Shown one piece after another: positions 24,174 to 46,889 of a stretch of DNA of 64,000 bases. Source of the DNA: an uncultured Candidatus Saccharibacteria bacterium (GTDB lineage: Bacteria; Patescibacteriota; Minisyncoccia; Minisyncoccales; GBS-2); the NCBI GenBank assembly GCA_964593405.1, contig CAZQIO010000001.1, positions 2,263 through 66,262 on the forward strand. The letters are read 5' to 3'. How positions within the stretch are numbered: the stretch's first letter is position 1; each line of letters begins with the position of its first letter. The notes under the pieces were generated by a model. That model did not search any database. It was not told where the DNA came from and saw nothing but the letters and a program-made list of their open reading frames with translations. The translations under genes were made by a program, and so were the position numbers.

Positions 24174-24903
24174 AGTTGGATGTTGCGGATTTCCTGAAAA
24201 CAAAAAAGAGTACTTTAAAAAATTTTCTTTAGTTGAGTTGCAATCTACTTTTTACGAAATTCCGGCAAAAATGGAAACTGTGAAAAAATGGAGAGAGGAG
24301 GCTCCAAAAGATTTTGAGTTTTCTCTGAAAGCATTTCAAGTAATAACTCACGATGCTTCAAGTCCTACTTACAAAAAATTGAAAAGAAAATTTGGTAATC
24401 AAAAAAATTATGGATTTTTTAAAAACACAAAAGAAGTATTTTTGGCTTGGGAGATGACAAAGAATGTGGCAAAAGAATTAAAAGCAAAAGTTATTGTTTT
24501 TCAATGCCCTTCTTCCTTTAAGCCAGAAAAAGAGAACATAAAAAATTTTGAAAACTTTTTCAAAAAAATAAAAGAGAAAAATTTTATTTTTGCTTGGGAA
24601 CCAAGAGGAGAATGGTCAGAAGATTTGATTAAAAATCTGTGCAAAAAATTGAATTTGGTCCATTGTGTTGACCCTTTCAAACAAAAACCAGTTTTTGGAA
24701 AAATAAATTACTTTAGGTTGCACGGAAAACCAGGATACAATTTAAAGTACAATTATACTATTGAAGATTTCAAAGAACTTTTGAAGTTTTGTGACAAAAA
24801 AGAAAACTACGTTTTGTTTAACAATTTAAATATGGGAAAAGATGCCCAAAGTTTTCAAAAGCTCCTCAAAAATGTTCCACATTATATTGCCATGGCAAAA
24901 TAA
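24160..24903 (+). CDS. DUF72 (YecE-like) family protein, paralog 1
   Basis: VGCCGFP...ELQSTFYEIP matches the DUF72 signature. Tandem with the next gene. Confidence 0.6.
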   Translation: MKKIKVGCCGFPENKKEYFKKFSLVELQSTFYEIPAKMETVKKWREEAPKDFEFSLKAFQVITHDASSPTYKKLKRKFGNQKNYGFFKNTKEVFLAWEMTKNVAKELKAKVIVFQCPSSFKPEKENIKNFENFFKKIKEKNFIFAWEPRGEWSEDLIKNLCKKLNLVHCVDPFKQKPVFGKINYFRLHGKPGYNLKYNYTIEDFKELLKFCDKKENYVLFNNLNMGKDAQSFQKLLKNVPHYIAMAK

Positions 24904-24915
24904 TGTGGCACAATT

Positions 24916-25668
24916 ATGAGTGAAGTTTTTATTGGGACATCGGGGTATATTTATCCCCATTGGGAAGGAGTTTTTTATCCTCTAGGCTGGCCCAAAGCAA
25001 AAAAATTGGAATACTATTGCCAGCATTTTGATACAGTTGAACTAAACAATACTTTTTATAGGCTTCCTGGTAAAAAAACTTTTGAAAGTTGGTACAAAAG
25101 AACTTCCAAGAATTTTATTTTCGCAGTCAAGGTTTCAAGATTCATCACTCATATTAAAAAATTGAAAGATTGCCGAGAATCTTGGGAGATATTTTTAAAG
25201 CGGGCTTTAATTTTAAAAGAAAAACTAGGCCCTCTCTTGTTTCAGTTGCCACCTTCTTGGAAAAAGGATGCAAAAAGGTTGGAAGAATTTTTAAAACTAA
25301 TAACTAAAAACCTAGAACCTAAAACCTCAAACTTAAAGTTTGCTTTTGAATTCAGGAATGAAACTTGGTGTTGCCAAGAAATTTATGATTTGTTGAAAAA
25401 ATACAATTGCGCTTGGGTTGTTGTCGATTCTCCCCATTGGCCAAAGGTTTTCCAGGTTACTGCAGATTTTGTTTATGTTAGAATGCACGGTTCAAAAATT
25501 TTGTTTGGTTCAAAGTATACAAAAAAGGAATTAGAGAATTTGGCAGAAAAAATTAAAGAATGGCAAAAACAAAGATTAGATGTTTTTGTCTATTTTAACA
25601 ACGACGCCCATGGCTTTGCAGTTCAAAATGCAAAAGAATTATTAAGATTGACAAAGAATTTTAAATAA
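24916..25668 (+). CDS. DUF72 (YecE-like) family protein, paralog 2
   Basis: IGTSGYIYPHWEGVFYP...YYCQHFDTVELNNTFYRLP canonical DUF72 N-terminus. Confidence 0.7.
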   Translation: MSEVFIGTSGYIYPHWEGVFYPLGWPKAKKLEYYCQHFDTVELNNTFYRLPGKKTFESWYKRTSKNFIFAVKVSRFITHIKKLKDCRESWEIFLKRALILKEKLGPLLFQLPPSWKKDAKRLEEFLKLITKNLEPKTSNLKFAFEFRNETWCCQEIYDLLKKYNCAWVVVDSPHWPKVFQVTADFVYVRMHGSKILFGSKYTKKELENLAEKIKEWQKQRLDVFVYFNNDAHGFAVQNAKELLRLTKNFK

Positions 25669-25707
25669 ACTAAAAAAAGAAAAGGTCGAAAAATCAATTT
25701 TAAACCA

Positions 25708-26397
25708 ATGAGAAAAGTTTTATTGTCAATTTTAATTGGAGTTTTGATTTTGGCAATTTCAAATCCAATCGCTGCCAAGTCCAAAGGAAAAAAAATTAAT
25801 GAGCCAGTAGATAAGATAACTTTCATTCACTACAAAGGAGGAAAAGTAAGAGTGGAAGGTAAAGGAGCAAAAGCTCAAACCTGTTATAAGTTGTTGGGGG
25901 TAAAATGGAGAAATCTGCCGATAGATTATGTGATTCAAACTGGAATTCCAGAAAGTGCCATTTCCTTGGCGACTGCTGAATGGGATAGGTGGACCTCTGC
26001 TAATTTATTTGGAAATTTTGCTACAGATTCTTTAGCCGATTTTGATGAAGATTCACCAGATGGAAAAAACGAGTACAGCATTGGCAATTATCCAGAAGAG
26101 GGTGTAATAGCAGTGACAAACATTTGGTACACTATTCGTTCAAAACAAATTGTTGAATACGACGTGCTGTTTGACACTGATTATTTATGGGGAGATGCGA
26201 CAATCAACCCTGAAGTAATGGATTGGCAAAACATTGCCACTCACGAAACAGGACATGGTTTGGGTCTTGGCGATGTTTATCAAACTCTTTGCTCTGAGGT
26301 GACAATGTATGGATATTCTGATTATGGAGAGACAAAGAAAAGAACTCTTGAAACACCAGATATTTTAGGACTTCAAAAACTCTACGGCGGACTATAA
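25708..26397 (+). CDS. secreted metzincin-like Zn metalloprotease (HExxHxxGxxD, snapalysin/matrixin-like)
   Basis: Signal peptide, HETGHGLGLGD zinc-binding motif, and a downstream Met-turn-like MYGY. Confidence 0.6.
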   Translation: MRKVLLSILIGVLILAISNPIAAKSKGKKINEPVDKITFIHYKGGKVRVEGKGAKAQTCYKLLGVKWRNLPIDYVIQTGIPESAISLATAEWDRWTSANLFGNFATDSLADFDEDSPDGKNEYSIGNYPEEGVIAVTNIWYTIRSKQIVEYDVLFDTDYLWGDATINPEVMDWQNIATHETGHGLGLGDVYQTLCSEVTMYGYSDYGETKKRTLETPDILGLQKLYGGL

Positions 26398-26489
26398 AAT
26401 AGGGTTTATTTGATTTTTTGTTTGCCACCTAGTTTCTCTTTGCGATTTTTTCTTTTTCATTATCTGACCAATGATCATTTTTTAAAATT

Positions 26490-27047
26490 ATGAAAAAAGA
26501 GAATTTTAAATTGCTTGAGAAAAAAGGTGCGGTTTTAGTCATTGTCGATGTTCAGGAAAAATTGCTGCCAAAAATCAAAGAAAAGGGCAAGATTTTAAAA
26601 AACATTTTAAAACTGGTTAAATTTGCAAAAATCATTAACCTTCCGATTGTTTTGACTGAACAATACCCAAAGGGCCTGGGGAAGACAGTCAATGAAATTA
26701 GAAAAATTTTACCAAATATAGAGCCAATTCAAAAAACAACCTTTAGTTGTTTTGGCAGCAAAAATTTCAAAGAAAAATTAAAAAAGCTTAAGGTCTCAAG
26801 TTTAATCATTGTTGGAATAGAAACTCACATTTGTGTTCTTCAAACAGCACTCGAAGCAATCGGTCGTTTTAAAGTTTTTGTTGTAGCCGATGCCACTTCT
26901 TCCCGTTCGAAAAAAGACTGGCAAATTGCTATTGAAAGAATGAGAGAGGAGGGAGTGACAATTTCTTCAACAGAAATGCTAATTTTTGAATTGTTAAAAG
27001 ATACAAAAGAAAAAGAATTCAAAAAAGTTTTGGAATTGTTGAAATAA
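26490..27047 (+). CDS. isochorismatase-family cysteine hydrolase
   Basis: VLVIVDVQ (Asp), Lys, and a VGIETHICV (Cys) triad arrangement. Confidence 0.7.
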   Translation: MKKENFKLLEKKGAVLVIVDVQEKLLPKIKEKGKILKNILKLVKFAKIINLPIVLTEQYPKGLGKTVNEIRKILPNIEPIQKTTFSCFGSKNFKEKLKKLKVSSLIIVGIETHICVLQTALEAIGRFKVFVVADATSSRSKKDWQIAIERMREEGVTISSTEMLIFELLKDTKEKEFKKVLELLK

Positions 27048-27060
27048 AAAGAACGTCTTA

Positions 27061-27130
27061 TTATAATTCACTAATGAGATTTACTGTTTCAACAAAAGGA
27101 TTTTGCGATGTAATAGATATTACCTTTTAA
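27061..27130 (+). repeat. remnant copy A of the yjbQ promoter-proximal 5' end (TATAAT box, ATG, 18 codons then stop)
   Basis: TTATAATtcacTAATGAGATTTACTGTTTCAACAAAAGGATTTTGCGATGTAATAGATATTAC is ~90% identical to 41041-41090 and shares the upstream TATAAT-N4-TAATG with copy B. Confidence 0.6.
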
Positions 27131-27184
27131 AATAAATTAAGTCTAAAGTTTTATACATCCAGTGCGTAAAAACAACCAAAATAA

Positions 27185-28276
27185 ATGTACCATCTTTTCA
27201 GGAAATTGATAGACATAAATTTATTATATTTAAGCAAATATTCTCGCTTTTTTTTAAATTTTATTCAACCAAGGCCGATTGAGGCCAGCTTTAAGGTAAC
27301 TGAGAGGTGCAACAGCCGGTGCATTACCTGTAATGTCTGGAAAAATGTTCCCAAGAATGAATTGACTACTCAAGAAATAGAAAATGTTTTTTATCAGTTA
27401 AGAGAGATAGGAATAAAATATATCGGTTTCACTGGTGGAGAATGTTTGTTAAGGGATGACATTGGTGAATTGATTAAAAAAGCCAAAAAAATATTAAGAG
27501 CAAAAGTTTATATAATCACAAATGGTATATTGTTAGAAGAAAAAGCAAAGATTCTTTTGGAACAGGGAGTAGATTATATCAGCGTTTCCCTTGATGGCAT
27601 AGGAAAAACTGATGAAAAAATAAGAGGAGTCCCCGGTCATTACGAGAAGGTCATAAGAGGAATTAAACGATTAAGAAAATTGAGTTCGGGGAAATCGCCT
27701 CCCATTAATATAGGCACCACCCTTGTCAAACTTAACCTTCACGAAATTCCAAAATTGATTGAGGTTTGTAAAAAATTAAATGTAACTTGGTCGTATAATT
27801 TATTAGATACAAGCCTTTATTTCTTTAAAGGTATTGATACTTCCCAACTATTGGTCAACGATGAGAATTTAGTGGATAAAACGATCGATTATTTATACGA
27901 AATAAAAAAGAAGGACCCCGAAATAATTAACATGAATTTTAAGAGTTTGGAATTTGCCAGAGAGTATCTTAAAAATAAAAAGCCCAATTTCCATTGCACT
28001 ATGGGGTATCTGAGAGTTTTGATAGATTCAAGTTTAAATGTCTATTCAGGTTGTTGGGCTCTTCCTCCGATGGGAAACTTAAGAAAAGAAAATTTAAAAG
28101 ATATTATTAGATCGCCAAAATATAAACAAAGGACAAAACAAATGTTTGATTTAAACTGCCCAAGATGTACTTGCGGTTATGCATTCTCTCTGGCGATTAA
28201 CTTTTTACCTTCAAGTTTGATTGAAGCAATCAAAAATTTTAAGGGGTATAAAACATATCTAAAAATGATAGTGTAG
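27185..28276 (+). CDS. radical SAM protein with C-terminal SPASM/twitch-like Cys cluster
   Basis: CNSRCITCN (CxxxCxxC), GGEC, and a C-terminal ...CTMGY...GCW...CPRCTCGY. Confidence 0.7.
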   Translation: MYHLFRKLIDINLLYLSKYSRFFLNFIQPRPIEASFKVTERCNSRCITCNVWKNVPKNELTTQEIENVFYQLREIGIKYIGFTGGECLLRDDIGELIKKAKKILRAKVYIITNGILLEEKAKILLEQGVDYISVSLDGIGKTDEKIRGVPGHYEKVIRGIKRLRKLSSGKSPPINIGTTLVKLNLHEIPKLIEVCKKLNVTWSYNLLDTSLYFFKGIDTSQLLVNDENLVDKTIDYLYEIKKKDPEIINMNFKSLEFAREYLKNKKPNFHCTMGYLRVLIDSSLNVYSGCWALPPMGNLRKENLKDIIRSPKYKQRTKQMFDLNCPRCTCGYAFSLAINFLPSSLIEAIKNFKGYKTYLKMIV

Positions 28277-28323
28277 TATTGCAAAGCGGATAATCGGTTA
28301 GACCAAGAAACTTAAAAGGGAAT

Positions 28324-28872
28324 ATGATTTTCACTCAACTAGATCTTAAATTACTATTGTTACTTCAGAATTTTCATAACAAGTTTTTGGATTATTTGAG
28401 TTTAGGAATTAGCTGGATTACCGAGGGAGGTTTTATTTGGTTTTTTATTTGTGGGTTAATTTTTCTTTTTGAGAAAAAAGAGAAAAAAAGGAAAATTTTT
28501 TTAATTTTATCAGTGCTTTTGCTGAGTGATTGGCTGGTTAATATTCCTTTCAAGATGATTCTTTTTTGTCGAGAAAGGCCATATAAGGTTATTCCAGGAA
28601 TTAGAGTGATTGGCAAAATCTGGGAAAATTGTTCTTTTCCCTCCGGTCATTTGGCCGTTTCAACGGCCGCTGTTTTGATTATTGGTTATTTGTTCCATTT
28701 AAGAAAAGGCTGGTTTATTTTTTCTTCAATTAGCTTTCTCTTTCTTTTGTCTTTTGCCAGGATGTATGTTGGCATGCATTATCTGAGCGATATTTTAGGA
28801 GGAATAGTTATTGGAGTTATTTCCGCGCTTATCATTATCTATTTTGATAAGCAGATTAACTGGAAATTCTGA
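28324..28872 (+). CDS. PAP2-family membrane phosphatase
   Basis: CRERPY, PSGH, and ARMYVGMHYLSDILGG (R-x5-H-x3-D) motifs. Multiple TM helices. Confidence 0.7.
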   Translation: MIFTQLDLKLLLLLQNFHNKFLDYLSLGISWITEGGFIWFFICGLIFLFEKKEKKRKIFLILSVLLLSDWLVNIPFKMILFCRERPYKVIPGIRVIGKIWENCSFPSGHLAVSTAAVLIIGYLFHLRKGWFIFSSISFLFLLSFARMYVGMHYLSDILGGIVIGVISALIIIYFDKQINWKF

Positions 28873-28912
28873 AGTTAAGATAAAACTTCGACAATTTCTT
28901 TTTTGCCGAGTT
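28873..28912 (+). terminator. possible intrinsic terminator after the PAP2 gene
   Basis: GAAGTT-aagataaa-AACTTC hairpin followed by a T-rich run (TTTCTTTTTTG). Confidence 0.25.
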
Positions 28913-28924
28913 TTTATTTTCATT

Positions 28925-28970
28925 TTATAATGGATTAATGCGCTTTACCGTTTCAACAAAAGGATTCGTT
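28925..28970 (+). repeat. remnant copy B of the yjbQ promoter-proximal 5' end
   Basis: TATAATggatTAATGCGCTTTACCGTTTCAACAAAAGGATT matches the first ~30 nt of yjbQ (41041-41070), then diverges. Confidence 0.55.
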
Positions 28971-29154
28971 GTGAAAACACCAGAATACTCGTTAAAATAA
29001 GACTTCCTCCAAGGAGCGAAATGACCAAGAAAAAGCTGGCAGTTAAGGCTTAATTTTTAATGGGATGTCATCCATATTTTTTGGCATCATGGACAATATC
29101 CCAGCAAATGGCTTAAATTTGAGCTGGAAGTAATGATATAACTGGGTTTTAAGT

Positions 29155-30103
29155 TTGGAAATCACTTCAATCGCAGAACAGTTATTATTCACCGGCGTCA
29201 GGATAGAAAGTATAGTGGTCGAAAATAAACGAAAAATCGGGACAGGTTTTATTCTTGATTACAGAATGGAGGGCAAAAGCTATCCGTTCATCATAACAGC
29301 AAAGCATATTATTAGCGGAGCCGAAGAAGGAGTATTAACTTTTATTAAAGGCAAAAGAAACATACCGCTTCTTGGAGAGGGTTATCAGTTAAAAATTAAG
29401 GATTTTGAGAAAATTTAGTTTAAGCATCCAAGTGAAAACATTGATGTAGCAGTATCACCTTTTGTTCCTATTCTTAACCATATTGCAAATCAAGAAATCC
29501 AAGTATTTTTTAAATCAATACCTAGCGATTTGATTCCCAAAAATGCACAACTAAAGGAATTTGACGCGATAGAGGATATTCTCTTTATTAGGTTATCCCA
29601 TCGGACTATGGGATGAGAAAAATCTTCTTCTTATTGTAAGAAGAGGTATTACCGCAACTCTAGTATTTGTAAACTTTAATGGTGAAAGGCAATTTTTAAT
29701 CGACGCTTCTATCTTTCCGGGTTCTAGTGGAAGCCCTGTTTTTATTTATGACAGAGGAATTTATTGGAACAAAAAGTCAGAAGCTACGGTTGGTGGTCAC
29801 AGAATCTTCCTTTTAGGAATTCTTTCAGCTGTTTTTCGGATGCCCGATAGAGGAGAATTGATCTTTCCAAGCGAACGAATACACACCCTTACAGAGCATG
29901 GCGAAGCAGTGTTTTTTACGAATGAAAAAGTGAGGATTAAAGTAAATCAACTAGCAGACTTAGGAATAGTTTTTAAATCAGAGATAATAATTGAAACTAT
30001 AAACAAGTTTCTGAAAGGAAACGTAATGCATGCCTATGGCGCTCCACAATATTTCGCATACATAATCGATAAACACTTACATAATAGCCTCCTAATCCTC
30101 TGA
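29155..30103 (+). pseudogene. trypsin-like (S1/Trypsin_2) serine protease, disrupted by an in-frame TAG (29416-18) and a frameshift near 29590
   Basis: Catalytic triad segments lie in three frames or pieces: ITAKHII (His), NIDVAVS (Asp), and IDASIFPGSSGSPVF (Ser, GxSGxP). Confidence 0.6.
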
Positions 30104-30273
30104 ATACAAATCATGGAACCATGAATAATATCTCACCGAGTGAATTAAGTTTGAACTGGAAGTAAAAGTGTGATGTTATAGCAGCATCTTTTAGCATAGA
30201 AAGAGATGATTAAATAGCTAACTAAAAAATTATTCTTCTTTAACTGTCTCCTTAACATAAGCGATTTTGGGTT

Positions 30274-30471
30274 TTATTGTTTCTTTTCTTTCTTCTTTAC
30301 AAGCCAGTAGACTATTCCAGCGATTATCCAGCATATTATCGTGCTTATTGGCGTGGAGGAACAGTGAGCGTAGTGGCCTAGCAGGCAGGATCTACTTGCG
30401 GGGGCGGGGATTAATGTTGAAACCCCTAAAACAATAAATATTACTATTAGAACCCAGTGATACCCCTTCAA
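30274..30471 (-). CDS. small two-TM membrane protein (hypothetical)
   Basis: 65-aa ORF with two hydrophobic helices and a Lys-rich tail. Confidence 0.25.
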   Translation of the reverse strand: MKGYHWVLIVIFIVLGVSTLIPAPASRSCLLGHYAHCSSTPISTIICWIIAGIVYWLVKKKEKKQ

Positions 30472-30866
30472 TAAATTTTCCTCCTATATATCGGATGTTA
30501 TTATTTTAACTCAAGATGTTTATAAAATTTTGGATGATAACAAGGATTAAATCTGCATTTCTCACACCTTTTAATGGAGTTGGTATAATGCCGCGGAATG
30601 CTCAAAGGTTATTGATAAGATTCTAGAGATGTTGATGGATGAAACGCTACCCTCAAAGAGAAAATAGAGAGATGGAATAATCTTTCAGAGAAGTTTGCCG
30701 AGTGCATAGGTGGGCGTTTAAAGGAGTTAGTAAAGGAAATGAAGATAACTGAATTAGAGGTGCAGAAGCTAGCTCAGGAAATTTTAGAAGAAGCAACCAT
30801 ATACGCTAAACATCATCGTGAAAATTAATAGTTTATCAATTTTAAGAATAAAAGCCTGAATAAAAT

Positions 30867-31795
30867 TCAATTTAAAACTTTAAGCCCAGCCTTATCATAG
30901 ATTTCCTTCAGTTTCTCTGGGCTGAAATCCGTATAATGTCTTGCAAGTACGCTTCTTGGAACCCTTCCGCAGAAGGCATCAACATATCTGTCCGGGACGC
31001 CTAGTTTTCCCATTTCGCAGGCAAACCATTCCCTCAATATTTGAGGCGTAATGCTTAAACCAGTTTTCATTCTGGCATCGAGGAATATCCTGTGCTTTTC
31101 GTTCGTCTTCATCGGGAAGAGTTTATCGCTCTTTTTTAGCCTAATCTTTAGTCATTCCTTTAAAGGTTTTTCAGCCTCTTCGTTGTAGAAGGTTATGTAG
31201 CTTCTTTTTGTTCTGGAATTATGTCGGGGAAATATCGTTCTCTTTTCAAAATCGATGTCGCTTAGCTTCAACTTTAGGGCTTCGCTTCTCCTTAATCCAG
31301 AGGAAGCTAATAAAAGAAAGATCGCCTTTTCTCTTAAATCCTTCAAGGCTTGGTAAAATCTTTGAAGCTCTTCTTTTGAAGGGACCTTTTTAATCGTTGG
31401 GCTTGGATTTGGGAATTTGAAGCTTGGACCAAGTCTGGCCTTCCTAAGAAATCTCTGAAAAACCTCTACAAAGCCTTCAACATGTTGGCATAGCTATACG
31501 GATTTCCATCCCTCAAAGTTAAAAGGAAACTCCTAATATCTCCAACGCTCGGGAAGTCAATGCCATTTTTCTCTATCCAAGCCAAAAACTTCCGCACATT
31601 GTAGATGTGTTGCCCCACCGTCTGTTTCGAAAGCTGAAGGTTAACCAAGCAAAATTCTGCGAATTTCCTCAGCACTTCCTGGAAATCAGATATTCTCTCA
31701 AAGTTATTCTCCTCATTCTCCATTCTCCCTTCAAATTGTCCCAATTTGAATTCTAAGCCATCTTTGAGCCTGTCACGCTGAGGACCCGGGTTCAA
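30867..31795 (-). pseudogene. tyrosine recombinase/integrase (XerC/D-phage integrase family), one frameshift (~31470-31495) and one in-frame TGA (31152-54)
   Basis: N-terminal SAM-like domain (ISDFQEVLRKFAEFCLVNLQLSKQTVGQHIYNVRKFLAW). Catalytic box I LLLASSGLRRSEALKLKLSDID. Box II ITPQILREWFA...RSVLARHYTD with the Tyr. Pieces 2 and 3 are in the same frame across the TGA. Confidence 0.75.
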
Positions 31796-31813
31796 ATCCC
31801 GGCGGCCACACCA
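31786..31813 (+). other. orphan tRNA 3' fragment (T arm + acceptor 3' strand + CCA): candidate att core
   Basis: CCGGG-TTCAAAT-CCCGG, then CGGCCAC, then A-CCA. No complementary 5' acceptor strand (GTGGCCG) lies upstream. Abuts the integrase N-terminus. Confidence 0.55.
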
Positions 31814-32061
31814 TTCATCACTGTTTTTTTGTCTCCTTTTTTCCGTAAAGAGGTCTTAATTGTTTTATTGCCATTTTCAAAGCATTTTCACAAGTCCTTG
31901 AAATATTCAAGCCCAATTCCCTTGCCTCTTTAACAACATCCTCGTCGATATAGATGGTTACACTTATTTGCTTACCCAATTTTATTTGCCTCCATTTGGA
32001 ATTATGTGGAAATCAAATTTAAGGATTTCGCATGCAAAGCCATGCGCCCTGAGGATGGAGA

Positions 32062-32859
32062 ATGGCGATGGCGAGAATAGTGAGAATAAAGTTGTATAAG
32101 AATTCTCTAGGAAATTTTTATGAAGAGGAGAAAGAGATGTCAGAGGCTGTTGCGCCGAGAAGGTTTGTCATTCCGAGGCTTTTGGCTTGGGTTATGGTTT
32201 TTGCTGGAATAGGCATATTCGTTATCGGTATTCCATTTCTTATGTATAGCCTTTTCATGTTTAGTTTTGTTAGGCGCTTCGACCCTACCGGCATTATCCT
32301 GATGATCGTTGGTGCAATCGTCTTTTACGTTGGATACAAAAATACGGGCTTTATACTGACTAAGGAAGAGATAGTAGATAGGTGGAGCGTTTTAGTTGAG
32401 AACGGCAAGGGAAAGGCAAACGAGATCTTCGATGATACCGAAGGCTTCATTAGGAAAAGCCAAGCTCCAAGGATTGCTGTCGAAAGGAGGGAAATTGTCC
32501 CTACGATAACAAAGGACATCCTGGGCGTGAGGAGAAGGTTTTTGGTCGTTACTAAACTTGAGAATCCAAAGCTTTTGAATTACAAGACCTTCATTTGCGC
32601 TAGGGATTATGGAAACAACCTCGATGTTTCGTGGTATTTAACGTATAAAATGGGCTTTTTCGAAGCTTTATTGAACCTATTATTTCTCAGAGGAAGATTT
32701 GTTCCAAAACTTGACTTGTTCGACGAGCAGGATTTAAGAGCTTATATGACAAACGTCCATCACTGCCTTTTAAAAGCCGTTGAATCTTTAATGAAGAGCT
32801 TGGGGCAAGACTTTTCTAAGGTTGACAGAAAATCTATAGGTTTCTTGGGCGTTAGTTGA
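32062..32859 (+). CDS. membrane protein (two N-terminal TM helices + ~180-aa soluble domain), hypothetical
   Basis: Hydrophobic segments LLAWVMVFAGIGIFVIGIPFLMYSLFMF and GIILMIVGAIVFYVGY. 4-nt overlap with the downstream ATPase. Confidence 0.4.
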   Translation: MAMARIVRIKLYKNSLGNFYEEEKEMSEAVAPRRFVIPRLLAWVMVFAGIGIFVIGIPFLMYSLFMFSFVRRFDPTGIILMIVGAIVFYVGYKNTGFILTKEEIVDRWSVLVENGKGKANEIFDDTEGFIRKSQAPRIAVERREIVPTITKDILGVRRRFLVVTKLENPKLLNYKTFICARDYGNNLDVSWYLTYKMGFFEALLNLLFLRGRFVPKLDLFDEQDLRAYMTNVHHCLLKAVESLMKSLGQDFSKVDRKSIGFLGVS

Positions 32860-34142
32860 TGGGAATTCTTGATAGGCTGCTTAGGCGGAAAAAGAAGGAA
32901 AAAGAGGAGGTTGAAGTAGAGGAGAAAGTCGAAGAAGCTCCAGTCGAAGTTGACGAGGGAAATGTTGTAAACATTGGCTGGTATTGGTCTGAGCAAAAGC
33001 AAGAGTGGCAGATGGCAAAGATTAAAGAGGAGGATAGGAAAGTTCACTTTTACGTTGTCGGTGCCTCTAGAACTGGAAAGTCAAAGTTCCTTGAGTTTTT
33101 GATTAGACAAGACATTGAAAAGGGAAATGGCTTCGGAGTAATCGACCCTCACAGGGATTTGATTGATGATATTAAGGCTTATCTAACATTAGCCCTGCCG
33201 AAAGAGGAGTTGGAAGAGAGAGTTGTAGTAATAGACCCAACAGATGAGAGGTATACCGTCGCCTTCAACCCTCTTGAGAAGATCAAGAAAATGTTATCTG
33301 CCGAGATAGCAGCCGAGCTCGTCGAAGCCTTCAAGAAGATTTGGGATTATGGGAGCGCCATCGAAACTTACGGTTGGGGTGCTAGGATGGAGGATTTGCT
33401 TAGGAACTCGCAAATAGCCCTAATAGAGGCTGGACTCACGCTATGCGACCTACCACGTTTTCTAATAGAGGATGACTTTAGGGAGAACGTCTTGGAGAGG
33501 GTTGAGCATCCAATAGCAAAGAGGTATTTCCAGAGGTTTAATGCCTTAGCCCCAAAAACGAGAGAGGAATGGATGGAATCTACACTGAACAAAGTCAATG
33601 CTTTTTTATCAGATGATAGGATCAGGGAGATATTCTCATTCCAAAAATCTTCTTTCAATTTCAGGGAGATAATGGATAATAAGAAGATTTTGTTAATTAA
33701 GCTTGATAAGGGAAGGCTGAAAGAAAATGCCGACTTGCTGGGTGCGCTATTGATGACGAAGATCAGGATGGCTGCGTTCTCGAGGTCAAACGTTCTAAAA
33801 GAGAAAAGAGTCCCATTCTACCTTTACATTGACGAGTTTCAAAACTTTGCAACCAAAACATTCATTGAAACTCTGAGCGAGGCTAGAAAATATGGCTTAT
33901 CACTTATAATGGCCCATCAGAATCTTTCTCAGTTGCCGAAGGAATTGCAAGATTCAATTTTAACTAACTGCGGAATCCAATGTTACTTCAAGGTCTGTAG
34001 AAGAGATGCTGAAATATTAGCTAAAGAAGCTTTTGAGACGAGTGGTGTTGAGGTAAAAGCAGTAAAACTTTCGAGGGAGTACTCTGATTACGATTGGTTC
34101 ACATATTCAGAGGATTGGGAAAAGTACATTCAAGAGCTATAG
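32856..34142 (+). CDS. FtsK/HerA/TraG(VirD4)-superfamily P-loop ATPase (DUF87-like), no TM segment
   Basis: Walker A VVGASRTGKS. Walker B LYIDEFQNF. C-terminal RKYGLSLIMAHQNLSQLP signature shared by T4 coupling proteins and HerA. Confidence 0.6.
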   Translation: MMGILDRLLRRKKKEKEEVEVEEKVEEAPVEVDEGNVVNIGWYWSEQKQEWQMAKIKEEDRKVHFYVVGASRTGKSKFLEFLIRQDIEKGNGFGVIDPHRDLIDDIKAYLTLALPKEELEERVVVIDPTDERYTVAFNPLEKIKKMLSAEIAAELVEAFKKIWDYGSAIETYGWGARMEDLLRNSQIALIEAGLTLCDLPRFLIEDDFRENVLERVEHPIAKRYFQRFNALAPKTREEWMESTLNKVNAFLSDDRIREIFSFQKSSFNFREIMDNKKILLIKLDKGRLKENADLLGALLMTKIRMAAFSRSNVLKEKRVPFYLYIDEFQNFATKTFIETLSEARKYGLSLIMAHQNLSQLPKELQDSILTNCGIQCYFKVCRRDAEILAKEAFETSGVEVKAVKLSREYSDYDWFTYSEDWEKYIQEL

Positions 34143-34194
34143 CAGTTGCCAAACAGATGTTTTTGGGCAAAACACAAAATTGAAGGTGGTGTAA

Positions 34195-35103
34195 TTCCAC
34201 TGTACACTGTGGGAAATTAGGCAAGCTTATGAGGAGTTCGGTGTAGAGAAAGAGGTTCAGGATAAAATTCTGAGTGAAGTTGTCTTCAGTAAAAGGTATC
34301 TTTTAGAGAGAAAGCCCAAGGAAGTTGAAAAGAAGGTTAAGGAAAAGTCTAGTGAGGAAGAGAAGCTCACAGCCTTAGAGGAAATTATTGCAACATTAAC
34401 ACCTTTTGAGAAGGCGATTCTATGGGCTATAGGTGTTGGAAACTACAATTCAGCAGACATATACGAAGAGGCGAATAAGAAACTCAAAGAATGGGGTTGC
34501 TCAACCAGAAAATACTCAGAGTTTAAGAAGAAGTTTTATGAGTTTGCCAAACTACCTAAAGAGGGAGGTAAAGGATTAATAGAGTTTAGAAAGCTTGGCA
34601 GGAGCTTTTGCTATTGGCTAAGTAAGTGGGGAGAAATTGCATTTGCTGAAAAGTTTGGAATACCTTCTGATAGGGCGATAAACGAGCTTGGAGGTGGAAG
34701 AAAGCCATCAAAAACCGTAGCCTTGGAAGTCATAAAGGAGTGGCTTGAACCAAATGGATACAAGGTTAAGGCTGAGGAGGAAATAAAAACCGATTTGACC
34801 GAGAGAGGCAGAGGCTACACTGATTGGGTTGCCGAGAAAAATGGTGAAGTTTTGAGGATTGAGATTGAGCATAGAAGCCAAAAAGAGCAAGTGGAGAGGA
34901 ATATAAGGAAGAACTTAGAGTACTCAGATACACTCTACATCATAGCGAGCGATGAAACGGCGAAAAGAAAAGTTATTCAAGTTGCTTTGAGAACATTATT
35001 TAGGCTGAGGAAAGAAAAACCCGATGAAAAATGTGTGGTGAAGGTAGCTGACATTGAAGAACTGAAAAGGAATAGTTGGAATAAGTGGTTCGAGATAAAA
35101 TGA
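34195..35103 (+). CDS. winged-helix + PD-(D/E)xK nuclease-like protein; open frame of ~300 codons with no ATG/GTG/TTG before 34723
   Basis: Frame opens after the TAA at 34192-94. C-terminal GYTDWVAEKNGEVLRIEIEHRS resembles a PD-(D/E)xK core. The track only reports the TTG at 34723. Start lost, or non-canonical. Confidence 0.4.
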   Translation, partial: FHCTLWEIRQAYEEFGVEKEVQDKILSEVVFSKRYLLERKPKEVEKKVKEKSSEEEKLTALEEIIATLTPFEKAILWAIGVGNYNSADIYEEANKKLKEWGCSTRKYSEFKKKFYEFAKLPKEGGKGLIEFRKLGRSFCYWLSKWGEIAFAEKFGIPSDRAINELGGGRKPSKTVALEVIKEWLEPNGYKVKAEEEIKTDLTERGRGYTDWVAEKNGEVLRIEIEHRSQKEQVERNIRKNLEYSDTLYIIASDETAKRKVIQVALRTLFRLRKEKPDEKCVVKVADIEELKRNSWNKWFEIK

Positions 35104-35152
35104 AGGAAAACCTTATATGAGGAAAATCCACCTTTTCTATAAGTGAGAAAAA

Positions 35153-35518
35153 TTGGAGCGTTCAACTAGGAAATATAAGGCAACAAAGTTACCCGTTGAA
35201 GTATTTGATGAAGCCGAGTTAGTGAAAGCTAAGCTAATTATGAATAGGGAGGCTTTAAAGAAGCTTCCTTCAGAGGGTGCGAACCCAGCTAAATGTCCCC
35301 TTGGCGGTAATGATTTGAGGGTTGCCGAAGTTAAAGTGGCGGTAAAAATGGTCTCGTGTCAACGTTGCGGTTACAAACAACCGTCCCTAGACGTATCCAG
35401 CATTGGAAACGATCCTGCGGCAATCGCTGGAGCGTTAGGTCTGGGAGTTCTAGCGGGTCTCGGTATAGCTGCATTGCTATATTTAATATTTAGCGGTGAA
35501 AAGAATGAGCGAAGTTAG
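35153..35518 (+). CDS. small Zn-ribbon protein with C-terminal TM anchor (hypothetical)
   Basis: CPLGG...CQRCGY (two CxxC-like pairs), then AAIAGALGLGVLAGLGIAALLYLIF. The 35153 start is TTG; the first ATG is at 35240. Confidence 0.35.
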   Translation: MERSTRKYKATKLPVEVFDEAELVKAKLIMNREALKKLPSEGANPAKCPLGGNDLRVAEVKVAVKMVSCQRCGYKQPSLDVSSIGNDPAAIAGALGLGVLAGLGIAALLYLIFSGEKNERS

Positions 35519-35895
35519 GATAAAAGTCCAGGCAGATTTGAATATCATTAAAGAATTACTGATAAGAGAGGGTTTTACGATCCGGGCATTTTGCAGACTT
35601 GGAAAGAAGGCCAGGTATTTGGATTAGCTAAGCCGTTAAATTATCTAATCGAAGTTCACGTTAGGGGTTTTGCGGATAATACTTTAGATGCCGAAATAGA
35701 GTTATCACGTGAATATCTAGAACATCCCTACGACGGGAAACCTTACTACGGTTTTCTAATCGAGAACTCTAACTAAGTGGAAACCCATGCTTTTTGTACT
35801 ATGTATCATTTGTGGAATATGTGGATTTTTTGCAGTTTTAGAAAGATTCGGCTCGAAGGATAATTCATTGACAAAATTAGAAGAGGAATGATACA

Positions 35896-37179
35896 ATGGA
35901 TAGAATGTTTGTGAGATTTTTATCAGAAATAAAGGAACCAAAAGCTTCAGAACTTGGAGGAAAAGGCTATTCATTAGCTGTTTTAATGAATAACGGATTT
36001 AACGTCCCGAAAGGCTTTGTCATAGTTTTAGATGCGTTCTTTGAGCATCTTAAAAAGAACGAATTGATGGAGAAAGTTAGAGAACTAGTAGCTAAAATCA
36101 ACGAGGGGAATTTTCAAAAAAAAAGCAGAGAAATTAAAGAGTTAATATTGAGCGGAGCAATACCTGAGGAAATTGCCTTAGAGGTAAAAAATGTCTTAAA
36201 TAAATTAAATGTTCAGTATGTTTCTGTTAGGTCATCTGCTGTTAGCGAGGATAGCTTAAAAGCTTCATCTGCGGGAATGCATGATACATTCTTGAATGTA
36301 AAATCAGAACCAAAACAGGTTTTAGAAAATGTGAAGAAGTGCTGGGCATCTTTATTCAATGAAAGAGCGATAATATACAGAATTAAGAAAAAGCTGCCTC
36401 ATTTAGAGGGAATGGCGGTTGTAGTTCAAGAAATGATACCAGCTGAGGTTTCTGGGGTCGCCTTTACTGCCCACCCAACGAACAAAAAGTTTTTACTTAT
36501 TGAGGCTTGCTATGGAATTGGTGATATGGTCGTGGGTGGTAAGGTGGAGCCAGATGATTATGTGGTGAATAGAGAAACTTTAGAAATAATAGAAAGAAAG
36601 ATTGGCAGGAAGGATAGAATGAGCGTTATTGAAAATGGAAAAATTAAAGTTATTGATGTCGAAAAGAAACTTGCTGAAAAACAGGTTTTATCTGATAATG
36701 AGATAAAAGAAATCGCTGAAACTTGCCTAAAAGTCGAAAAAACATTTAAATATCCTCAAGATATTGAGTGGTGTATCTCCAAAGATTTTATATGGATTCT
36801 ACAATCACGAACAATAACCGCGACATCATTGCTTATTGGAGAAAAAACAAAAATAAAACCGATTTTGAGCGGATTAGGAGCAAGCCCCGGTATAGTTAAA
36901 GGGAAAGTAAAAATTATTTTAAGTCCGAGGGAAGTTAATAAAATGAATGATGGTGAAATATTGGTTACTGTAATGACTAATCCACTATATGTTACTGCAA
37001 TACAAAAAGCCAAAGGAATAGTTACAGACGTTGGTGGCATACTTTCTCATGCAGCTATTGTAGCAAGGGAGCTTGGAATTCCTTGTGTAGTTGGAACTGA
37101 AAAAGCGACAAAAATACTGAAAGATAATATGGAGGTTATTGTAAATGGTACAGAGGGTAAAGTTTATGCACCAGACTGA
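35896..37179 (+). CDS. PEP-utilizing-enzyme family phosphotransferase (PPDK-N ATP-grasp + phosphohistidine 'mobile' domain, no PEP/pyruvate TIM barrel)
   Basis: ELGGKGYSLAVLMNNGFNVPKGFVI (PpsA N-terminus) and C-terminal GGILSHAAIVARELGIPCVVG with the swivel His. Confidence 0.7.
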   Translation: MDRMFVRFLSEIKEPKASELGGKGYSLAVLMNNGFNVPKGFVIVLDAFFEHLKKNELMEKVRELVAKINEGNFQKKSREIKELILSGAIPEEIALEVKNVLNKLNVQYVSVRSSAVSEDSLKASSAGMHDTFLNVKSEPKQVLENVKKCWASLFNERAIIYRIKKKLPHLEGMAVVVQEMIPAEVSGVAFTAHPTNKKFLLIEACYGIGDMVVGGKVEPDDYVVNRETLEIIERKIGRKDRMSVIENGKIKVIDVEKKLAEKQVLSDNEIKEIAETCLKVEKTFKYPQDIEWCISKDFIWILQSRTITATSLLIGEKTKIKPILSGLGASPGIVKGKVKIILSPREVNKMNDGEILVTVMTNPLYVTAIQKAKGIVTDVGGILSHAAIVARELGIPCVVGTEKATKILKDNMEVIVNGTEGKVYAPD

Positions 37180-38260
37180 TGATTTAATAACTGAATTATT
37201 CAGAGTTACAGGAGAGGCAATCTACGATACAGATATGCAACACGGGGATGGTAGGGATTATTGGCCCTTTCATCCAGTATTTTTAGATTCTCTTGTTGCT
37301 CCAATAGTGTTTAAAGAAATTTTAAGGATTATTGAAACATTAGAAAACAAAGGCTACACCCTAACAGACATTGCAGAAACAGTATACAGTCCAACTAAAA
37401 TAGCTAATTACCAATATTTGTGGCCAGAAAAAACAATCAAATCTTTAACCTATGACGAAAAATACAAGCTCGCAAAATATTTCGTTGAGTTACTAACGAT
37501 TTTGAGAAATGGTGAACCTTTTTGTGAGAAAGGAAGAAACTTGGTATGGACCAGAAAGAACTTAATCCAAAATATAGAAAAATATAAGAAAGATTTTGTA
37601 AGTGCTAAACAAAACCCTGAAATGGCTCAACTTTTGTCGAAGCTAGAAGGAATTCTAGTTTCTTATGCGGAAGCGCTGTACTATTACATGATTGACTTAT
37701 CACGTATGATGCATGGTCCTTATTCACTTGAAAATGGATCTACTGTTTTTGTAAAGGAATATCTTCACTTAAAGGCTGGAGAACTTTGGGATGTGGTTTC
37801 AGATTTCCCTTTTGACCATTTTAAAGAGATCGGAATTTATCAAGGCATACAAATAACTACTTTCTTTATGGGACATACACACTCAAATCCACCTTTCCCA
37901 AAAGCAATAGATAAATTCGTTATAATCGTAGATGATAAAGTAATAAAAAATATGGACGAGCTGAGAAATTTATATGAAAAGGTAAAAGAAGTAACAGAAA
38001 GAGCAGCTCGATGTATAGCAGAAAAGTCTGGCGATGAAGCTTTTCTTCTTAAGAAGGGAATTGATATGTTTTTCTATCCATTAAAACCTCTCTACAAGGA
38101 AATAGGAGAGAACTGGAAAGATATACTTCCACAAGCATATAAGTTTGCATATAATGTGAAAGATAAAATAAAAGTTCCTGGACCCTGGGGTGATTGGAAT
38201 AAAGAGAAAGCAGTAAGTCACCTTCTAAAACTAATGGATTTTCGGAGGAAAGCAAGATGA
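37166..38260 (+). CDS. hypothetical protein, translationally coupled to the phosphotransferase (ATGcaccagacTGA overlap)
   Basis: 365-aa ORF starting MHQTDDL. No motif recognised. Confidence 0.4.
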   Translation: MHQTDDLITELFRVTGEAIYDTDMQHGDGRDYWPFHPVFLDSLVAPIVFKEILRIIETLENKGYTLTDIAETVYSPTKIANYQYLWPEKTIKSLTYDEKYKLAKYFVELLTILRNGEPFCEKGRNLVWTRKNLIQNIEKYKKDFVSAKQNPEMAQLLSKLEGILVSYAEALYYYMIDLSRMMHGPYSLENGSTVFVKEYLHLKAGELWDVVSDFPFDHFKEIGIYQGIQITTFFMGHTHSNPPFPKAIDKFVIIVDDKVIKNMDELRNLYEKVKEVTERAARCIAEKSGDEAFLLKKGIDMFFYPLKPLYKEIGENWKDILPQAYKFAYNVKDKIKVPGPWGDWNKEKAVSHLLKLMDFRRKAR

Positions 38261-38484
38261 TAACAGAGTTCTGCAGTTACAAGCAAACTCTAATAAATAT
38301 GATGAAGATTATCCGTAAACCTATAGAATCTTTTGCTATTGATACAAACACCACTTACCTTTACTTTGAAAAAACGCTTTACCTCCAATAGGTCCAACCA
38401 ATTCTAGAGAAAACTATATGATGCCTTTTCTTATTTTAGTAACCAACCCCCTGTTCTCATGTCTTAAAGCATGGTGGATGTACG

Positions 38485-40286: not shown

Positions 40287-40449
40287 ATCAAGATAATGGA
40301 TGCATAATTCCTTATCAATGAACTCATTGCAAAACTCTTAGCGAACGTTTAAACTGTTAGCTTAAGCAATGAGGTTTCGCAATTGGCTCAATAATAAAAA
40401 CTTAGAATACAGAAGCTATTCTAGAAGAACGAAAAATATTAAACCATTG

Positions 40450-40535
40450 CTTTGTGGCTTAATTATGTACCTTCATCAACTTTCACATCAAATCCTATCA
40501 TCAACCTATGTGGGGTTGAGAGTTAAGCCACAAAG
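40450..40535. repeat. 13-bp perfect inverted repeat CTTTGTGGCTTAA ... TTAAGCCACAAAG with 60-nt spacer
   Basis: Arms at 40450-40462 and 40523-40535, inside the 750-bp noncoding right end of the island. The track ORF at 40369..40572 that spans it is probably spurious. Confidence 0.45.
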
Positions 40536-46849: not shown

Positions 46850-46889
46850 CTAACCACTAAAAAATAATTACTAAAAATCACTAATTTTG

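Follow-up and report, generated by a model that had tools for sequence, protein, structure and literature searches.

A dead tyrosine integrase and its tRNA-derived attachment site in a Parcubacteria chromosome: probable remains of a mainly archaeal integrative element

Introduction

A tyrosine integrase gene with an interrupted reading frame that abuts the 3' part of a tRNA lacking its 5' half raises the question of where the pair originated and how it came to reside in its present chromosome. Here, we analysed a stretch of 64,000 nucleotides (hereafter, the window) that holds such a pair. By itself, the object is ordinary, a dead integrase beside its attachment (att) site; what makes it of interest is the cross-domain location. 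We consider it probable, at roughly 0.7, that we are dealing with the integrase-att module of an integrative element in decay, one that belongs to a mainly archaeal family and now resides in a Parcubacteria chromosome, and the presence of an archaeal-type element in a bacterium probably reflects the movement of DNA between domains of life. Metabolic genes are inferred to have passed between bacteria of the Candidate Phyla Radiation (CPR) and archaea, and a mobile element preserved together with its attachment sites would suggest a vehicle for such flow. The locus would then be a base-precise record of an element family, otherwise found in Bathyarchaeia, Aenigmatarchaeota and other archaea, that is now present in a CPR bacterium.

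Host chromosome and island

The host is, judging from its bacterial markers (tmRNA, SmpB, IF3, L20/L35 and GreA) and from its ArgRS, which is closest to those of Nealsonbacteria/Parcubacteria, a Parcubacteria (CPR) bacterium. The integrase lies between greA and yjbQ, which are separated by 18 kb in the window versus 0.65 kb in the closest related genome; this difference and the raised G+C content of the block that contains the integrase (Table 1) identify the element as foreign to the host. In an exact-sequence look-up, all proteins of the island were singletons, with no near-identical donor.

Because the genome is metagenome-derived, with about 10x coverage, and a contig break of one assembly falls in the island, between 32529 and 32694, a misjoining of archaeal DNA to a bacterial contig during assembly or binning has to be considered. 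Such an artefact appears very improbable, given that both host-island joins are located within single contigs of a second assembly at equal coverage (10.5x and 10.2x), that the left join is base-precise and falls within the 5' end of a host gene, and that the island is bracketed by syntenic host genes on both sides. The several pseudogenes also suggest long residence.

Table 1. Coordinates of the features discussed in the text
Feature	Position	Strand	Basis or remark
Hybrid junction, host yjbQ 5' end (ATG...AAAAGG) followed by element sequence	28938..28966	+	alignment
3' remnant of large serine recombinase gene, ~55-65 codons, body missing	28967..29135	+	tail matches relatives
Trypsin_2-like peptidase pseudogene with one stop and one frameshift	29170..30103	+	PF13365, 4e-7
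Second, degenerate serine recombinase 3' tail	30125..30175	+	sequence comparison
65-aa membrane-like ORF	30274..30471	-	conserved directly downstream of integrase in relatives
Block of raised G+C, 0.38-0.46 vs 0.31-0.36 around	30800..35800		holds integrase, att, ccdA and VirD4-like gene
Tyrosine integrase pseudogene	30867..31723	-	classical, XerA-like fold; 285 codons once repaired
Lesion 3: in-frame TGA	31152..31154	-	Trp (or Tyr) in homologues
Lesion 2: 1-nt deletion, CAAAGC to CAAGC, LVQ / SFKFP	~31424..31425	-	tblastn splits gene there
Lesion 1: in-frame TAG	31466..31468	-	Lys or Arg in homologues
Four GAGAAT repeats across integrase start	31693..31728	-	read from sequence
Integrase-proximal att site, 3' part of archaeal-type tRNA-Gly without 5' half	31766..31813	+	unique in window
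ccdA-like small gene, intact, abutting att site	31818..31979	-	PF07362, 1.8e-9
Cargo right of att: 265-aa membrane ORF and VirD4/TraG-like ATPase, both intact	32062..34142	+	PF02534, PF10412, PF12696

The integrase pseudogene

The repaired 285-aa integrase matches PF00589 (1e-16), PF16795 and the PF02899/SAM-like N-domain in Pfam, and has 1120 homologues, the best of which are 64-69% identical over the full length, so its annotation as a minus-strand integrase pseudogene in the first-pass annotation of this DNA holds. Homologues of 275-293 aa align with it from end to end at this level of identity, and the start codon is at 31723. In an alignment that includes the repaired integrase, residues R144/R145, K172, R230, R253, H262 and Y263 occupy positions that do not vary or hardly vary, and the catalytic set of tyrosine recombinases (PF00589), Arg...Lys...xxR...(His/Arg)...Tyr, is present in it. 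No further integrase was found in the window.

The gene lacks an uninterrupted reading frame and is a pseudogene of the PF00589 family, dead through three point lesions. Only two of these, the TGA and a frameshift, had been counted before. The TGA at 31152-54 was correctly placed, and the Trp (or Tyr) found at this position in homologues makes a change of TGG to TGA likely. The TAG at 31466-68, which had been taken as the end of the first of three gene pieces, is itself a nonsense codon, past which the same frame reads on as RFFRDFLGRPDLVQ, in agreement with the family consensus RFFRDFLG. The frame change was thought to occur between 31466 and 31496, but the actual frameshift is the 1-nt deletion at ~31424/25 (ttggtccaa^agcttc, LVQ|SFKFP). 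Otherwise, the integrase is almost intact, retaining 49 of the 50 columns that are at least 95% conserved among 53 homologues, which indicates that the inactivation was recent, as originally proposed.

This near-perfect conservation of the remainder of the gene and the low coverage would also fit an integrase that is still functional, in which case the stops and the frameshift would be recoding signals or errors of sequencing. We find this hardly credible, because the three lesions are independent and identical in two assemblies, TGA (9) and TAG (6) terminate host genes, no homologue has such features, and neighbouring element genes are broken as well. The second copy of the integrase and tRNA fragment, identical in sequence, comes from NODE_123 of ENA ERZ1669417, an assembly that may derive from the same reads as the NCBI assembly. 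An alternative genetic code or readthrough was rejected, since both TGA and TAG are ordinary stops in the host.

The GAGAAT array that spans the integrase start occupies the same position, between att and the start codon, in two relatives (L002 and L004), and may represent arm or regulatory sites. Homologues of the 65-aa ORF downstream of the integrase were detected by tblastn at 58-71% identity in L029, L023, L052, L004-7, L020, L032, L034 and L040.

The tRNA-derived attachment site

The tRNA-derived stretch next to the integrase is about 46-48 nt long (31766/68-31813) and extends from the anticodon stem/loop to CCA, as in the att fragments of relatives, with a 3' end that reads ...CCGGGTTCAAATCCCGGCGGCCACA. 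Previously, only a T arm, acceptor strand and CCA at 31786-31813 had been noticed; these are real and, as the 28-mer CCGGGTTCAAATCCCGGCGGCCACACCA, present in a single copy in the window (0 matches expected from shuffles), but the fragment is longer, starting from the anticodon stem. No complete tRNA was predicted here by ARAGORN, whether or not introns were allowed; at the gathering score, Rfam yielded only the three known tRNAs and one tmRNA in the window, none of them at the fragment; and the 5' acceptor strand (GTGGCCG or GCGGCCG) is absent within 300 nt upstream. Refolding thus confirms that there is no full cloverleaf of a tRNA gene at this position (5' acceptor strand, D arm and anticodon arm).

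The fragment is identical to the Bathyarchaeia tRNA-Gly(GCC) in 41 of 46 positions and displays archaeal tRNA-Gly traits, namely, A73 and an acceptor strand of the GCGGCCG type. As had been stated, its source is not among the three tRNAs of the window: the fragment shows no similarity to the tRNA and tmRNA genes of the window apart from the T-loop. A host tRNA or tmRNA was accordingly rejected as the source, and weak Rfam matches to tmRNA and mascRNA reflect only the T arm and acceptor. An exact 25-mer scan of 185,579 species genomes returned a single match, an orphan fragment beside tRNA-Gly(CCC) in Vulcanisaeta, and no intact tRNA with such an end in these representative genomes. The Vulcanisaeta fragment aided the assignment to Gly and supplied no partner tRNA.

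These features bear on the possibility that the fragment is an attR scar in a tRNA gene of the bacterial host, with the intact partner located elsewhere or lost by rearrangement. An integrase beside a tRNA 3' fragment has the attR geometry seen in relatives, and 64 kb of the genome are visible. However, within these 64 kb, the fragment shows neither near-identity to a host tRNA nor host DNA on its 3' side: the supposed host flank consists of the ccdA-like gene and VirD4-like cargo, with raised G+C and no host genes, the tRNA features are archaeal, the likeness to the tRNAs and tmRNA of the window ends at the T-loop, and no representative genome contains an intact tRNA with such a 3' end. A host scar is therefore rather improbable. 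Given the element DNA beyond it, the fragment appears to be an internal att site, and since relatives also set a ccdA-like gene against the att site, the junction between fragment and ccdA is apparently internal to the imported DNA. The initial description of an att remnant is thus upheld in that this is an att site, but a scar in a tRNA of the host genome is probably not what it represents, being of archaeal type with element DNA on both sides; it also becomes unlikely that a partner tRNA exists elsewhere in the genome.

Layout of the family in relatives

The position of the fragment just upstream of the integrase is a stereotyped feature of the family. Of 80 metagenomic relatives, 46 have an antisense tRNA T-loop upstream of the integrase, at a distance of 23-211 nt; its position and orientation are those seen in the window, and no complete tRNA is present there. 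Twelve relatives carry a fragment that exactly repeats 21-65 nt (41-65 nt in 11 of them) of an intact tRNA located 3-8.5 kb beyond the 3' end of the integrase, the repeat usually beginning at tRNA position 25-38. In the window, no intact tRNA was found at the place expected from these relatives, left of the integrase. Homologues of the ccdA-like gene adjoin a tRNA 3' end or an att site in at least 15 relatives, and large serine recombinases are present in at least 10. For the closest relative, in Bathyarchaeia, the empty site has the arrangement nitroreductase - ccdA - tRNA-Gly(GCC) - DHDPS, and the occupied site, nitroreductase - ccdA - fragment - integrase.

The fragments and the empty and occupied sites in relatives show how the family works: the classical, XerA-like integrase acts on an att site situated directly before its own start codon and recombines it with a tRNA gene, in the 3' part of the latter. 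On integration, the tRNA is restored at the distal end of the element, beside the ccdA-like gene, and a 3' tRNA fragment in antisense orientation is left abutting the integrase start. This habit is seen in relatives, and the window holds the integrase-proximal copy only.

Going by its named members, the integrase family is archaeal, and it might circulate among CPR bacteria as well. The VirD4-like gene of the window is 36% identical to that of an element in an archaeal metagenome-assembled genome (L002/L003). No relatives were detected among the viral contigs of IMG/VR, and the best integrase match in annotated phage and plasmid collections does not exceed 30% identity. The family is uncharacterised and very abundant, with more than 1,100 database members, and its layout (ccdA, tRNA-derived att, GAGAAT repeats, integrase and, often, a convergent serine recombinase) is testable in vitro.

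Comparison with known integration systems

XerA gives the best solved-structure match to the window integrase, across both domains (Pyrococcus abyssi 4a8e, 2e-18; Thermoplasma acidophilum 5hxy, 2e-14), and shares its two-domain layout of a SAM-like N-domain and a catalytic domain. XerA is a chromosomal dimer resolvase that acts at dif. By contrast, tRNA-derived direct repeats border the integrases of the window family, as do ccdA, VirD4-like and serine recombinase genes, so XerA is a relative by fold, not by function. Identity with the chromosome dimer resolvase was rejected, as relatives of the window integrase carry tRNA direct repeats and mobile cargo.

The 'suicidal' integrases of the SSV type (SSV1, pTN3 and pT26-2) have attP within the ORF, so that integration divides the gene into int(N) and int(C). 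Like them, the window family is archaeal, targets tRNA 3' ends and has an open frame through the antisense tRNA fragment, into which some database ORF calls of homologues extend (P0015, P0022 and P0024). Unlike them, it has its att site outside the ORF and a complete N-terminal domain downstream of the fragment. Upstream of the fragment, the integrase frame reaches a stop after 13 codons with no start codon between, and resemblance to the SSV1 integrase is confined to the C-terminal 45 residues. A split integrase of the SSV type was rejected because the SAM-like N-terminal domain is complete, a stop and no start codon are found upstream, and homologues start at or after Met 31723.

The window family conforms to the pattern of the classical (type II, pNOB8-type) archaeal tyrosine integrases in the classification of She et al. 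2002 (reviewed in PMC8371274). In these, as in the window family, the recombinase gene remains whole after integration and long exact direct repeats are formed; an att site outside the ORF, an undivided gene and tRNA 3' repeats are found in the 12 relatives and the Bathyarchaeia sites. None of the characterised type II integrases is close to the window family (the best plasmid or phage match being at most 30% identical), and the latter differs from them in having att only 23-200 nt before the start codon, beside the GAGAAT repeats, and in the accompanying ccdA-like gene and, often, large serine recombinase; the window copy is, moreover, dead and located in a bacterium. Bacterial tRNA/tmRNA islands with P4-like integrases follow the same logic of an integrase with a tRNA-derived repeat, and pseudogene decay is common among them, but no host tRNA or tmRNA is the source of the repeat in the window, and the named members of the integrase family are archaeal.

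The yjbQ junction and the serine recombinase

At the left end of the island, the hybrid junction joins the yjbQ 5' end to ATYYGTTGTRAAAACA. Its left part is identical to intact yjbQ in 25 of 26 positions, and its right part follows the ATCTGTTGTAAAAACA of relatives. The adjoining stump is collinear with the 3' end of the L006 recombinase gene, and its tail, WHHGQYPSKWLKFELEV, matches the recombinase C-terminus in L016, L019, L029 and L034, with 87-93% nucleotide identity over the tail motif. No serine recombinase body was found in the window. In relatives, a mimic of the yjbQ 5' end is located in the 3' coding region of the serine recombinase; it was revealed only by a protein-level pattern, whereas a strict DNA pattern detected no yjbQ-like cores in relatives. 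Among the sampled genomes of other CPR bacteria, none had a recombinase adjoining yjbQ.

Because host yjbQ is fused here to the recombinase end of the same element family, the yjbQ site and the integrase can probably be assigned to a single element, two att systems in one element being a likelier explanation than a pair of unrelated elements. The first-pass annotation had assigned the fragment an att history apart from that of the yjbQ site, which is made less likely by the repeat at 28938, composed of host yjbQ and sequence of the integrase's own family. Of the nested or recombined element proposed on that ground, what stands is the location of the module, within a strain-specific region of 18 kb that precedes yjbQ; the junction carrying sequence of the same family speaks against the rest.

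With regard to the recombinase that acts at the mimic, we infer from adjacency only that it is the serine recombinase. Large serine recombinase elements are known to insert in protein-coding genes and repair the displaced end, as do SP-beta in spsM and skin in sigK. The window element would resemble these in having a recombinase gene at the element end, an att site over a host gene end and an element-borne mimic of that gene end; it differs in that the mimic is part of the 3' coding sequence of the recombinase itself, the two being linked by adjacency only, and in that one recombinant junction survives in the window. This clean hybrid junction and the 3' stump mark the left end, and the right-hand end of the island (41041) has a native-looking yjbQ and upstream region, with no recombinase body beside it. 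Hence, there is no simple attL...attR pair, and a later rearrangement must be assumed.

The right end without a recombinant junction would also agree with a different reading, in which a segment of an archaeal chromosome, or else a tandem array, is present in the window, the fragment being a true attR made in the archaeon and the entry unrelated to the yjbQ mimic. The ccdA and VirD4-like genes would then be an older neighbouring element or archaeal flank. Indeed, ccdA adjoins tRNA-Gly in the empty Bathyarchaeia sites, so the ccdA-fragment-integrase junction could be an archaeal attR rather than attP; ccdA also lies left of the fragment in L004, L010, L011 and L039, and tandem arrangements are known (L010/L011). 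Against this stands the left end, a precise hybrid of host yjbQ and the recombinase-proximal sequence of the element, which points to site-specific entry of a molecule carrying that site, and we regard the alternative as unlikely. The two views could be reconciled by a composite circle that had been excised from a tandem array.

Under the preferred reading, that of a decaying element with two att systems, the fragment would have arrived with the element rather than been made from a host tRNA; the element-type DNA (ccdA and VirD4-like genes) past it suggests an unrecombined attP or a tandem-array junction. Entry into the bacterial chromosome probably occurred via the second att site, the mimic of the yjbQ 5' end that close relatives carry at the 3' end of their large serine recombinase gene, of which only the hybrid junction and the recombinase stump would remain. 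With both recombinases destroyed, the element would be locked in and eroding.

More tentatively, and with considerable doubt, the family might be a natural inter-domain shuttle, using the tRNA att in archaea such as Bathyarchaeia and the serine recombinase with its yjbQ mimic in Parcubacteria, so that the window would record a transfer from an archaeon to a CPR bacterium. Transfer between physically associated cells is conceivable: some Nealsonbacteria were reported as ectosymbionts of methanogenic archaea, in a paper that makes no mention of integrases (bioRxiv 10.1101/2022.04.20.488981).

The Trypsin_2-like pseudogene next to the recombinase stump is flanked by two copies of the serine recombinase tail.

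Inactivation of the integrase

The tyrosine integrase gene runs on the minus strand from 31723 to 30867 and is split into three open pieces that, when joined, yield a 285-residue protein. The repaired integrase matches the Pfam Phage_integrase family (1e-16), the 'archaeal phage integrase' model PF16795 and a SAM-like N-terminal domain, and can be aligned over its full length with database proteins of 275-293 residues at 64-69% identity. The alignment with homologues revealed three lesions, each a single-nucleotide event, where the first-pass annotation had two. The in-frame TGA is as originally claimed. The TAG that ends the first piece is an in-frame nonsense mutation, not a frame change, and the frameshift, previously placed between 31466 and 31496, is a single-base deletion at a different position (see the table). 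The proposal of recent inactivation holds, because the repaired protein retains 49 of the 50 columns that are conserved at 95% or more in an alignment with 53 full-length homologues. Recoding was ruled out as an explanation of the stops, given that all three stop codons end genes of the host itself (TAA in 21, TGA in 9, TAG in 6). The integrase and fragment region is identical at every base in a second assembly (ENA ERZ1669417 NODE_123, possibly built from the same reads). The recently killed integrase lies with its att (attachment) site inside a decaying island, a finding that is real but ordinary in kind.

Features of the island and its surroundings, in window coordinates
Feature	Position	Strand	Remarks
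yjbQ 5' end, first copy	27074-27123		50 nt kept (17 codons, AGA-type allele as in relatives)
yjbQ 5' end, second copy	28938-28966		25/26 nt identical to intact yjbQ, ATG through AAAAGG
55-nt motif	29076-29135		87-93% nucleotide identity to relatives
Second, degenerate serine recombinase tail copy	~30125-30175		
65-aa ORF	30274-30471		58-71% identical in at least 8 loci
TGA	31152-54	minus	conserved Trp replaced
Single-base deletion (true frameshift)	~31424/25	minus	ttggtccaa^agcttc, between LVQ and SFKFP
Nonsense TAG	31466-68	minus	Lys or Arg in homologues; family consensus RFFRDFLGRPDLVQ continues in same frame
GAGAAT x4 array	31693-31728	minus	between att fragment and integrase start codon
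28-mer of the tRNA-like fragment	31786-31813	plus	exact, unique in window
Two overlapping ORFs	39158-40286	plus	148 and 263 aa, no Pfam match
57-aa ORF	40689-40862	minus	locus L026 has a ~70% identical homologue, directly ahead of its att fragment
Intact yjbQ, 5' end	41041-		third copy
tmRNA	46887-47187	minus	Rfam 89.5 bits; overlooked by ARAGORN

The GAGAAT array is kept in distant relatives (~9965-10000 in both L002 and L004). Where ORF calls are over-extended, it shows up as a 'conserved' peptide (RIENxEN), which is spurious.

Origin of the tRNA-like fragment

The 28-mer initially reported next to the integrase start is present and unique, but its extent was underestimated: the tRNA-derived stretch spans 46-48 nt, from the anticodon stem/loop at 31766/68 (GAGCCTGTCAC...). 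No complete tRNA was found at the fragment by ARAGORN (with or without introns), by Rfam at the gathering score or by a search for the 5' acceptor strand, confirming that the 5' half is lacking. Nor is the source tRNA among the three tRNAs of the window, as already stated in the first-pass annotation; these tRNAs and the tmRNA do not resemble the fragment past the universal T-loop.

In the nearest relatives of the integrase (L004/L007, L009, L010, L013, L018 and L026 among the metagenomic loci compared with the window), the fragments are all of tRNA-Gly type and share the same T-arm and acceptor. Over 46 compared positions, the window fragment agrees with Bathyarchaeia tRNA-Gly(GCC) at 41, and the five mismatches include four G:C-to-A:T transitions, one of which turns the anticodon to GTC and another of which alters the acceptor (G71 to A). 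A scan of 185,579 species genomes gave a single exact match to a 25-mer, likewise an orphan fragment: it lies in Vulcanisaeta, adjoins tRNA-Gly(CCC) and a distant integrase and, compared with its intact partner, shows the same G-to-A change. By the established tRNA identity rules, discriminator A73 and a GCGGCCG-type acceptor point to an archaeal tRNA-Gly.

The integrase family and its attachment sites

Relatives of the integrase were collected as 80 metagenomic loci and several contigs retrieved by exact protein look-up. Of the 80 loci, 46 have a tRNA T-loop in antisense orientation 23-211 nt upstream of the integrase match, and ARAGORN detected no complete tRNA over any of these sites. Twelve loci are long enough to include an intact tRNA (Gly, Glu, Ser, Arg, Val and one of undetermined type) in the same antisense orientation 3-8.5 kb past the integrase 3' end, preceded in the relatives by a ccdA-like gene as the last gene. 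The integrase-proximal fragment is an exact copy of the 3' part of the intact tRNA in all 12; the longest exact repeat measures 41-65 nt in every locus but L073, where it is 21 nt, and the repeat starts at tRNA position 25-38 in 11 loci. Many contigs of the relatives stop 100-300 nt short of the integrase on its upstream side, which fits assemblies that break at a repeat.

With this geometry, the family behaves as a classical (type II) archaeal integrase targeting tRNA 3' ends (PMC8371274). The SSV-type 'suicidal' arrangement was rejected: the att site is not within the ORF, the protein has its entire N-terminal domain, and its closest solved structures are the two XerA proteins. Characterised phage and plasmid integrases reach at most 30% identity to the window integrase. 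The named family members come from archaea (Aenigmatarchaeota, Bathyarchaeota/Bathyarchaeia, Hodarchaeaceae, Methanosuratincola, 'archaeon') and one WOR-3 bacterium. One subgroup (L065, L067, L069 and L075; ~49% identity) has a complete sense tRNA-Arg directly upstream of the integrase and no antisense fragment, a different att geometry inside the same integrase family.

The host of L004 can be identified from the neighbouring nitroreductase, which shares a 90% cluster with proteins carrying the name Candidatus Bathyarchaeia. The empty site in four related genomes reads nitroreductase, ccdA-like gene, tRNA-Gly(GCC), DHDPS, and it is here that the fragment and integrase of L004 are inserted. 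In L097 (Bathyarchaeia; 6774-7060), the same tRNA-Gly fragment is followed at the same point by a different island, encoding a TBP homologue, a helicase and an Eco57I-type methyltransferase, without an adjacent integrase; therefore, this tRNA-Gly site is used by more than one element.

Under the family geometry, an intact tRNA would be expected to the left of the integrase in the window, and host flank to the right of the fragment. There is no tRNA left of the integrase in the window, and on the right, a ccdA-like gene starts five bases past the CCA; VirD4-like cargo, its G+C raised to the same degree, comes next. The order ccdA-fragment-integrase recurs in L004/L007, L010, L011 and L039. It can represent the unrecombined attP of a circular element, the junction of tandem elements, or an attR where ccdA already adjoined the tRNA, the arrangement that the last option requires and that the Bathyarchaeia empty sites display. 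All three origins place imported, not bacterial, DNA on both sides of the fragment, which is therefore probably no trace of integration into a tRNA of this genome. The earlier view of a scar with its partner tRNA elsewhere in the genome is not borne out by an archaeal tRNA-Gly-type fragment with element DNA on both sides; the fragment is most likely an archaeal tRNA-Gly att belonging to the element itself, brought into a Parcubacteria chromosome.

The bacterial host and the island

The tmRNA lies next to smpB, which settles that the host is bacterial. Because the window also encodes SmpB, IF3, L20, L35 and GreA, and the proteins nearest to its ArgRS bear the names Candidatus Nealsonbacteria, Parcubacteria and Patescibacteria, the host is a CPR bacterium. 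Host G+C is 31-36%, against 38-46% in the block at ~30.8-35.8 kb, which comprises the integrase, the att site, ccdA, a membrane ORF, a VirD4/TraG-like gene and three small ORFs. The VirD4-like gene is 36% identical to one in the same element type of an archaeal MAG.

In the nearest related genome (L094, Parcubacteria; yjbQ 90% identical), greA, one ORF and yjbQ follow each other within 0.65 kb, whereas the greA-yjbQ interval of the window holds an 18.2-kb strain-specific region (22905-41040), with homology to L094 restarting 7 nt ahead of the yjbQ start. Given this synteny, and because in the second assembly each host-island join falls within one contig, the contigs being equally covered, a chimeric assembly is unlikely.

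The ENA assembly of the same organism has a break at 32529-32694, which falls in the 265-aa membrane ORF, and a few bases diverge at each of the two contig ends; population heterogeneity or a repeat could have caused the break. The two overlapping ORFs of 148 and 263 aa have the look of a single gene interrupted by a frameshift. The region just upstream of yjbQ varies in other CPR genomes too (L100 has an additional Peptidase_S8 gene there), many yjbQ-bearing contigs are very short, and the site looks like an insertion hot spot.

A second recombinase and the yjbQ site

Past the integrase 3' end, the gene order of the window is that of its relatives: the 65-aa ORF comes first and the 55-nt motif next. 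This motif is the C-terminal tail (...SWNHGQYPNNWLKFELEV, followed by a stop) of a large serine recombinase, the gene for which is convergent with the integrase in at least 10 relatives; in the window, the final 55-65 codons alone remain, and a Trypsin_2 peptidase pseudogene sits between the two tail copies. Two aspects deserve follow-up: the cross-domain location of the element, and a family design that probably combines two recombinases with two att sites.

The final ~20 codons of the recombinase gene show 87-93% nucleotide identity between elements (the window, L048, L029, L032/L034, L016 and L019) whose integrases share only ~50% identity. Such conservation at the DNA level suggests that the tail also serves as a recombination or regulatory site.

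In L005/L007, L006, L023 and L052, the 3' end of the recombinase gene holds, in another frame, a mini-ORF (MNSSHRFVLSTKGSVVKTKHLKYSQK, then a stop), the first part of which mimics the YjbQ N-terminus (MRFTVSTKGF...). The yjbQ repeat at 28938, a partial copy of the host gene's 5' end, reads MRFTVSTKGFVVKTPEYSLK up to its stop; past AAAAGG, it switches to ATTCGTTGTGAAAACA..., tracking the relatives' ATCTGTTGTAAAAACA... in the DNA alignment. Such a hybrid would be the expected leftover of a site-specific crossover between yjbQ and the element's mimic; the enzyme acting there would, by adjacency, be the serine recombinase. On the simplest reading, a circular element with both att systems would have entered the chromosome via the yjbQ site, which would explain the unrecombined tRNA-type att. 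Because the right end at 41041 looks native, with no recombinase body found next to it, this reading has to assume that the right-hand portion of the island, at 35.8-41.0 kb and with a G+C like that of the host, was later deleted or replaced.

The yjbQ 5' end is present in three copies. The one at 27074 breaks off ahead of radical-SAM and PAP2 genes, and its breakpoint differs from the +26 junction at 28938, implying a separate event.
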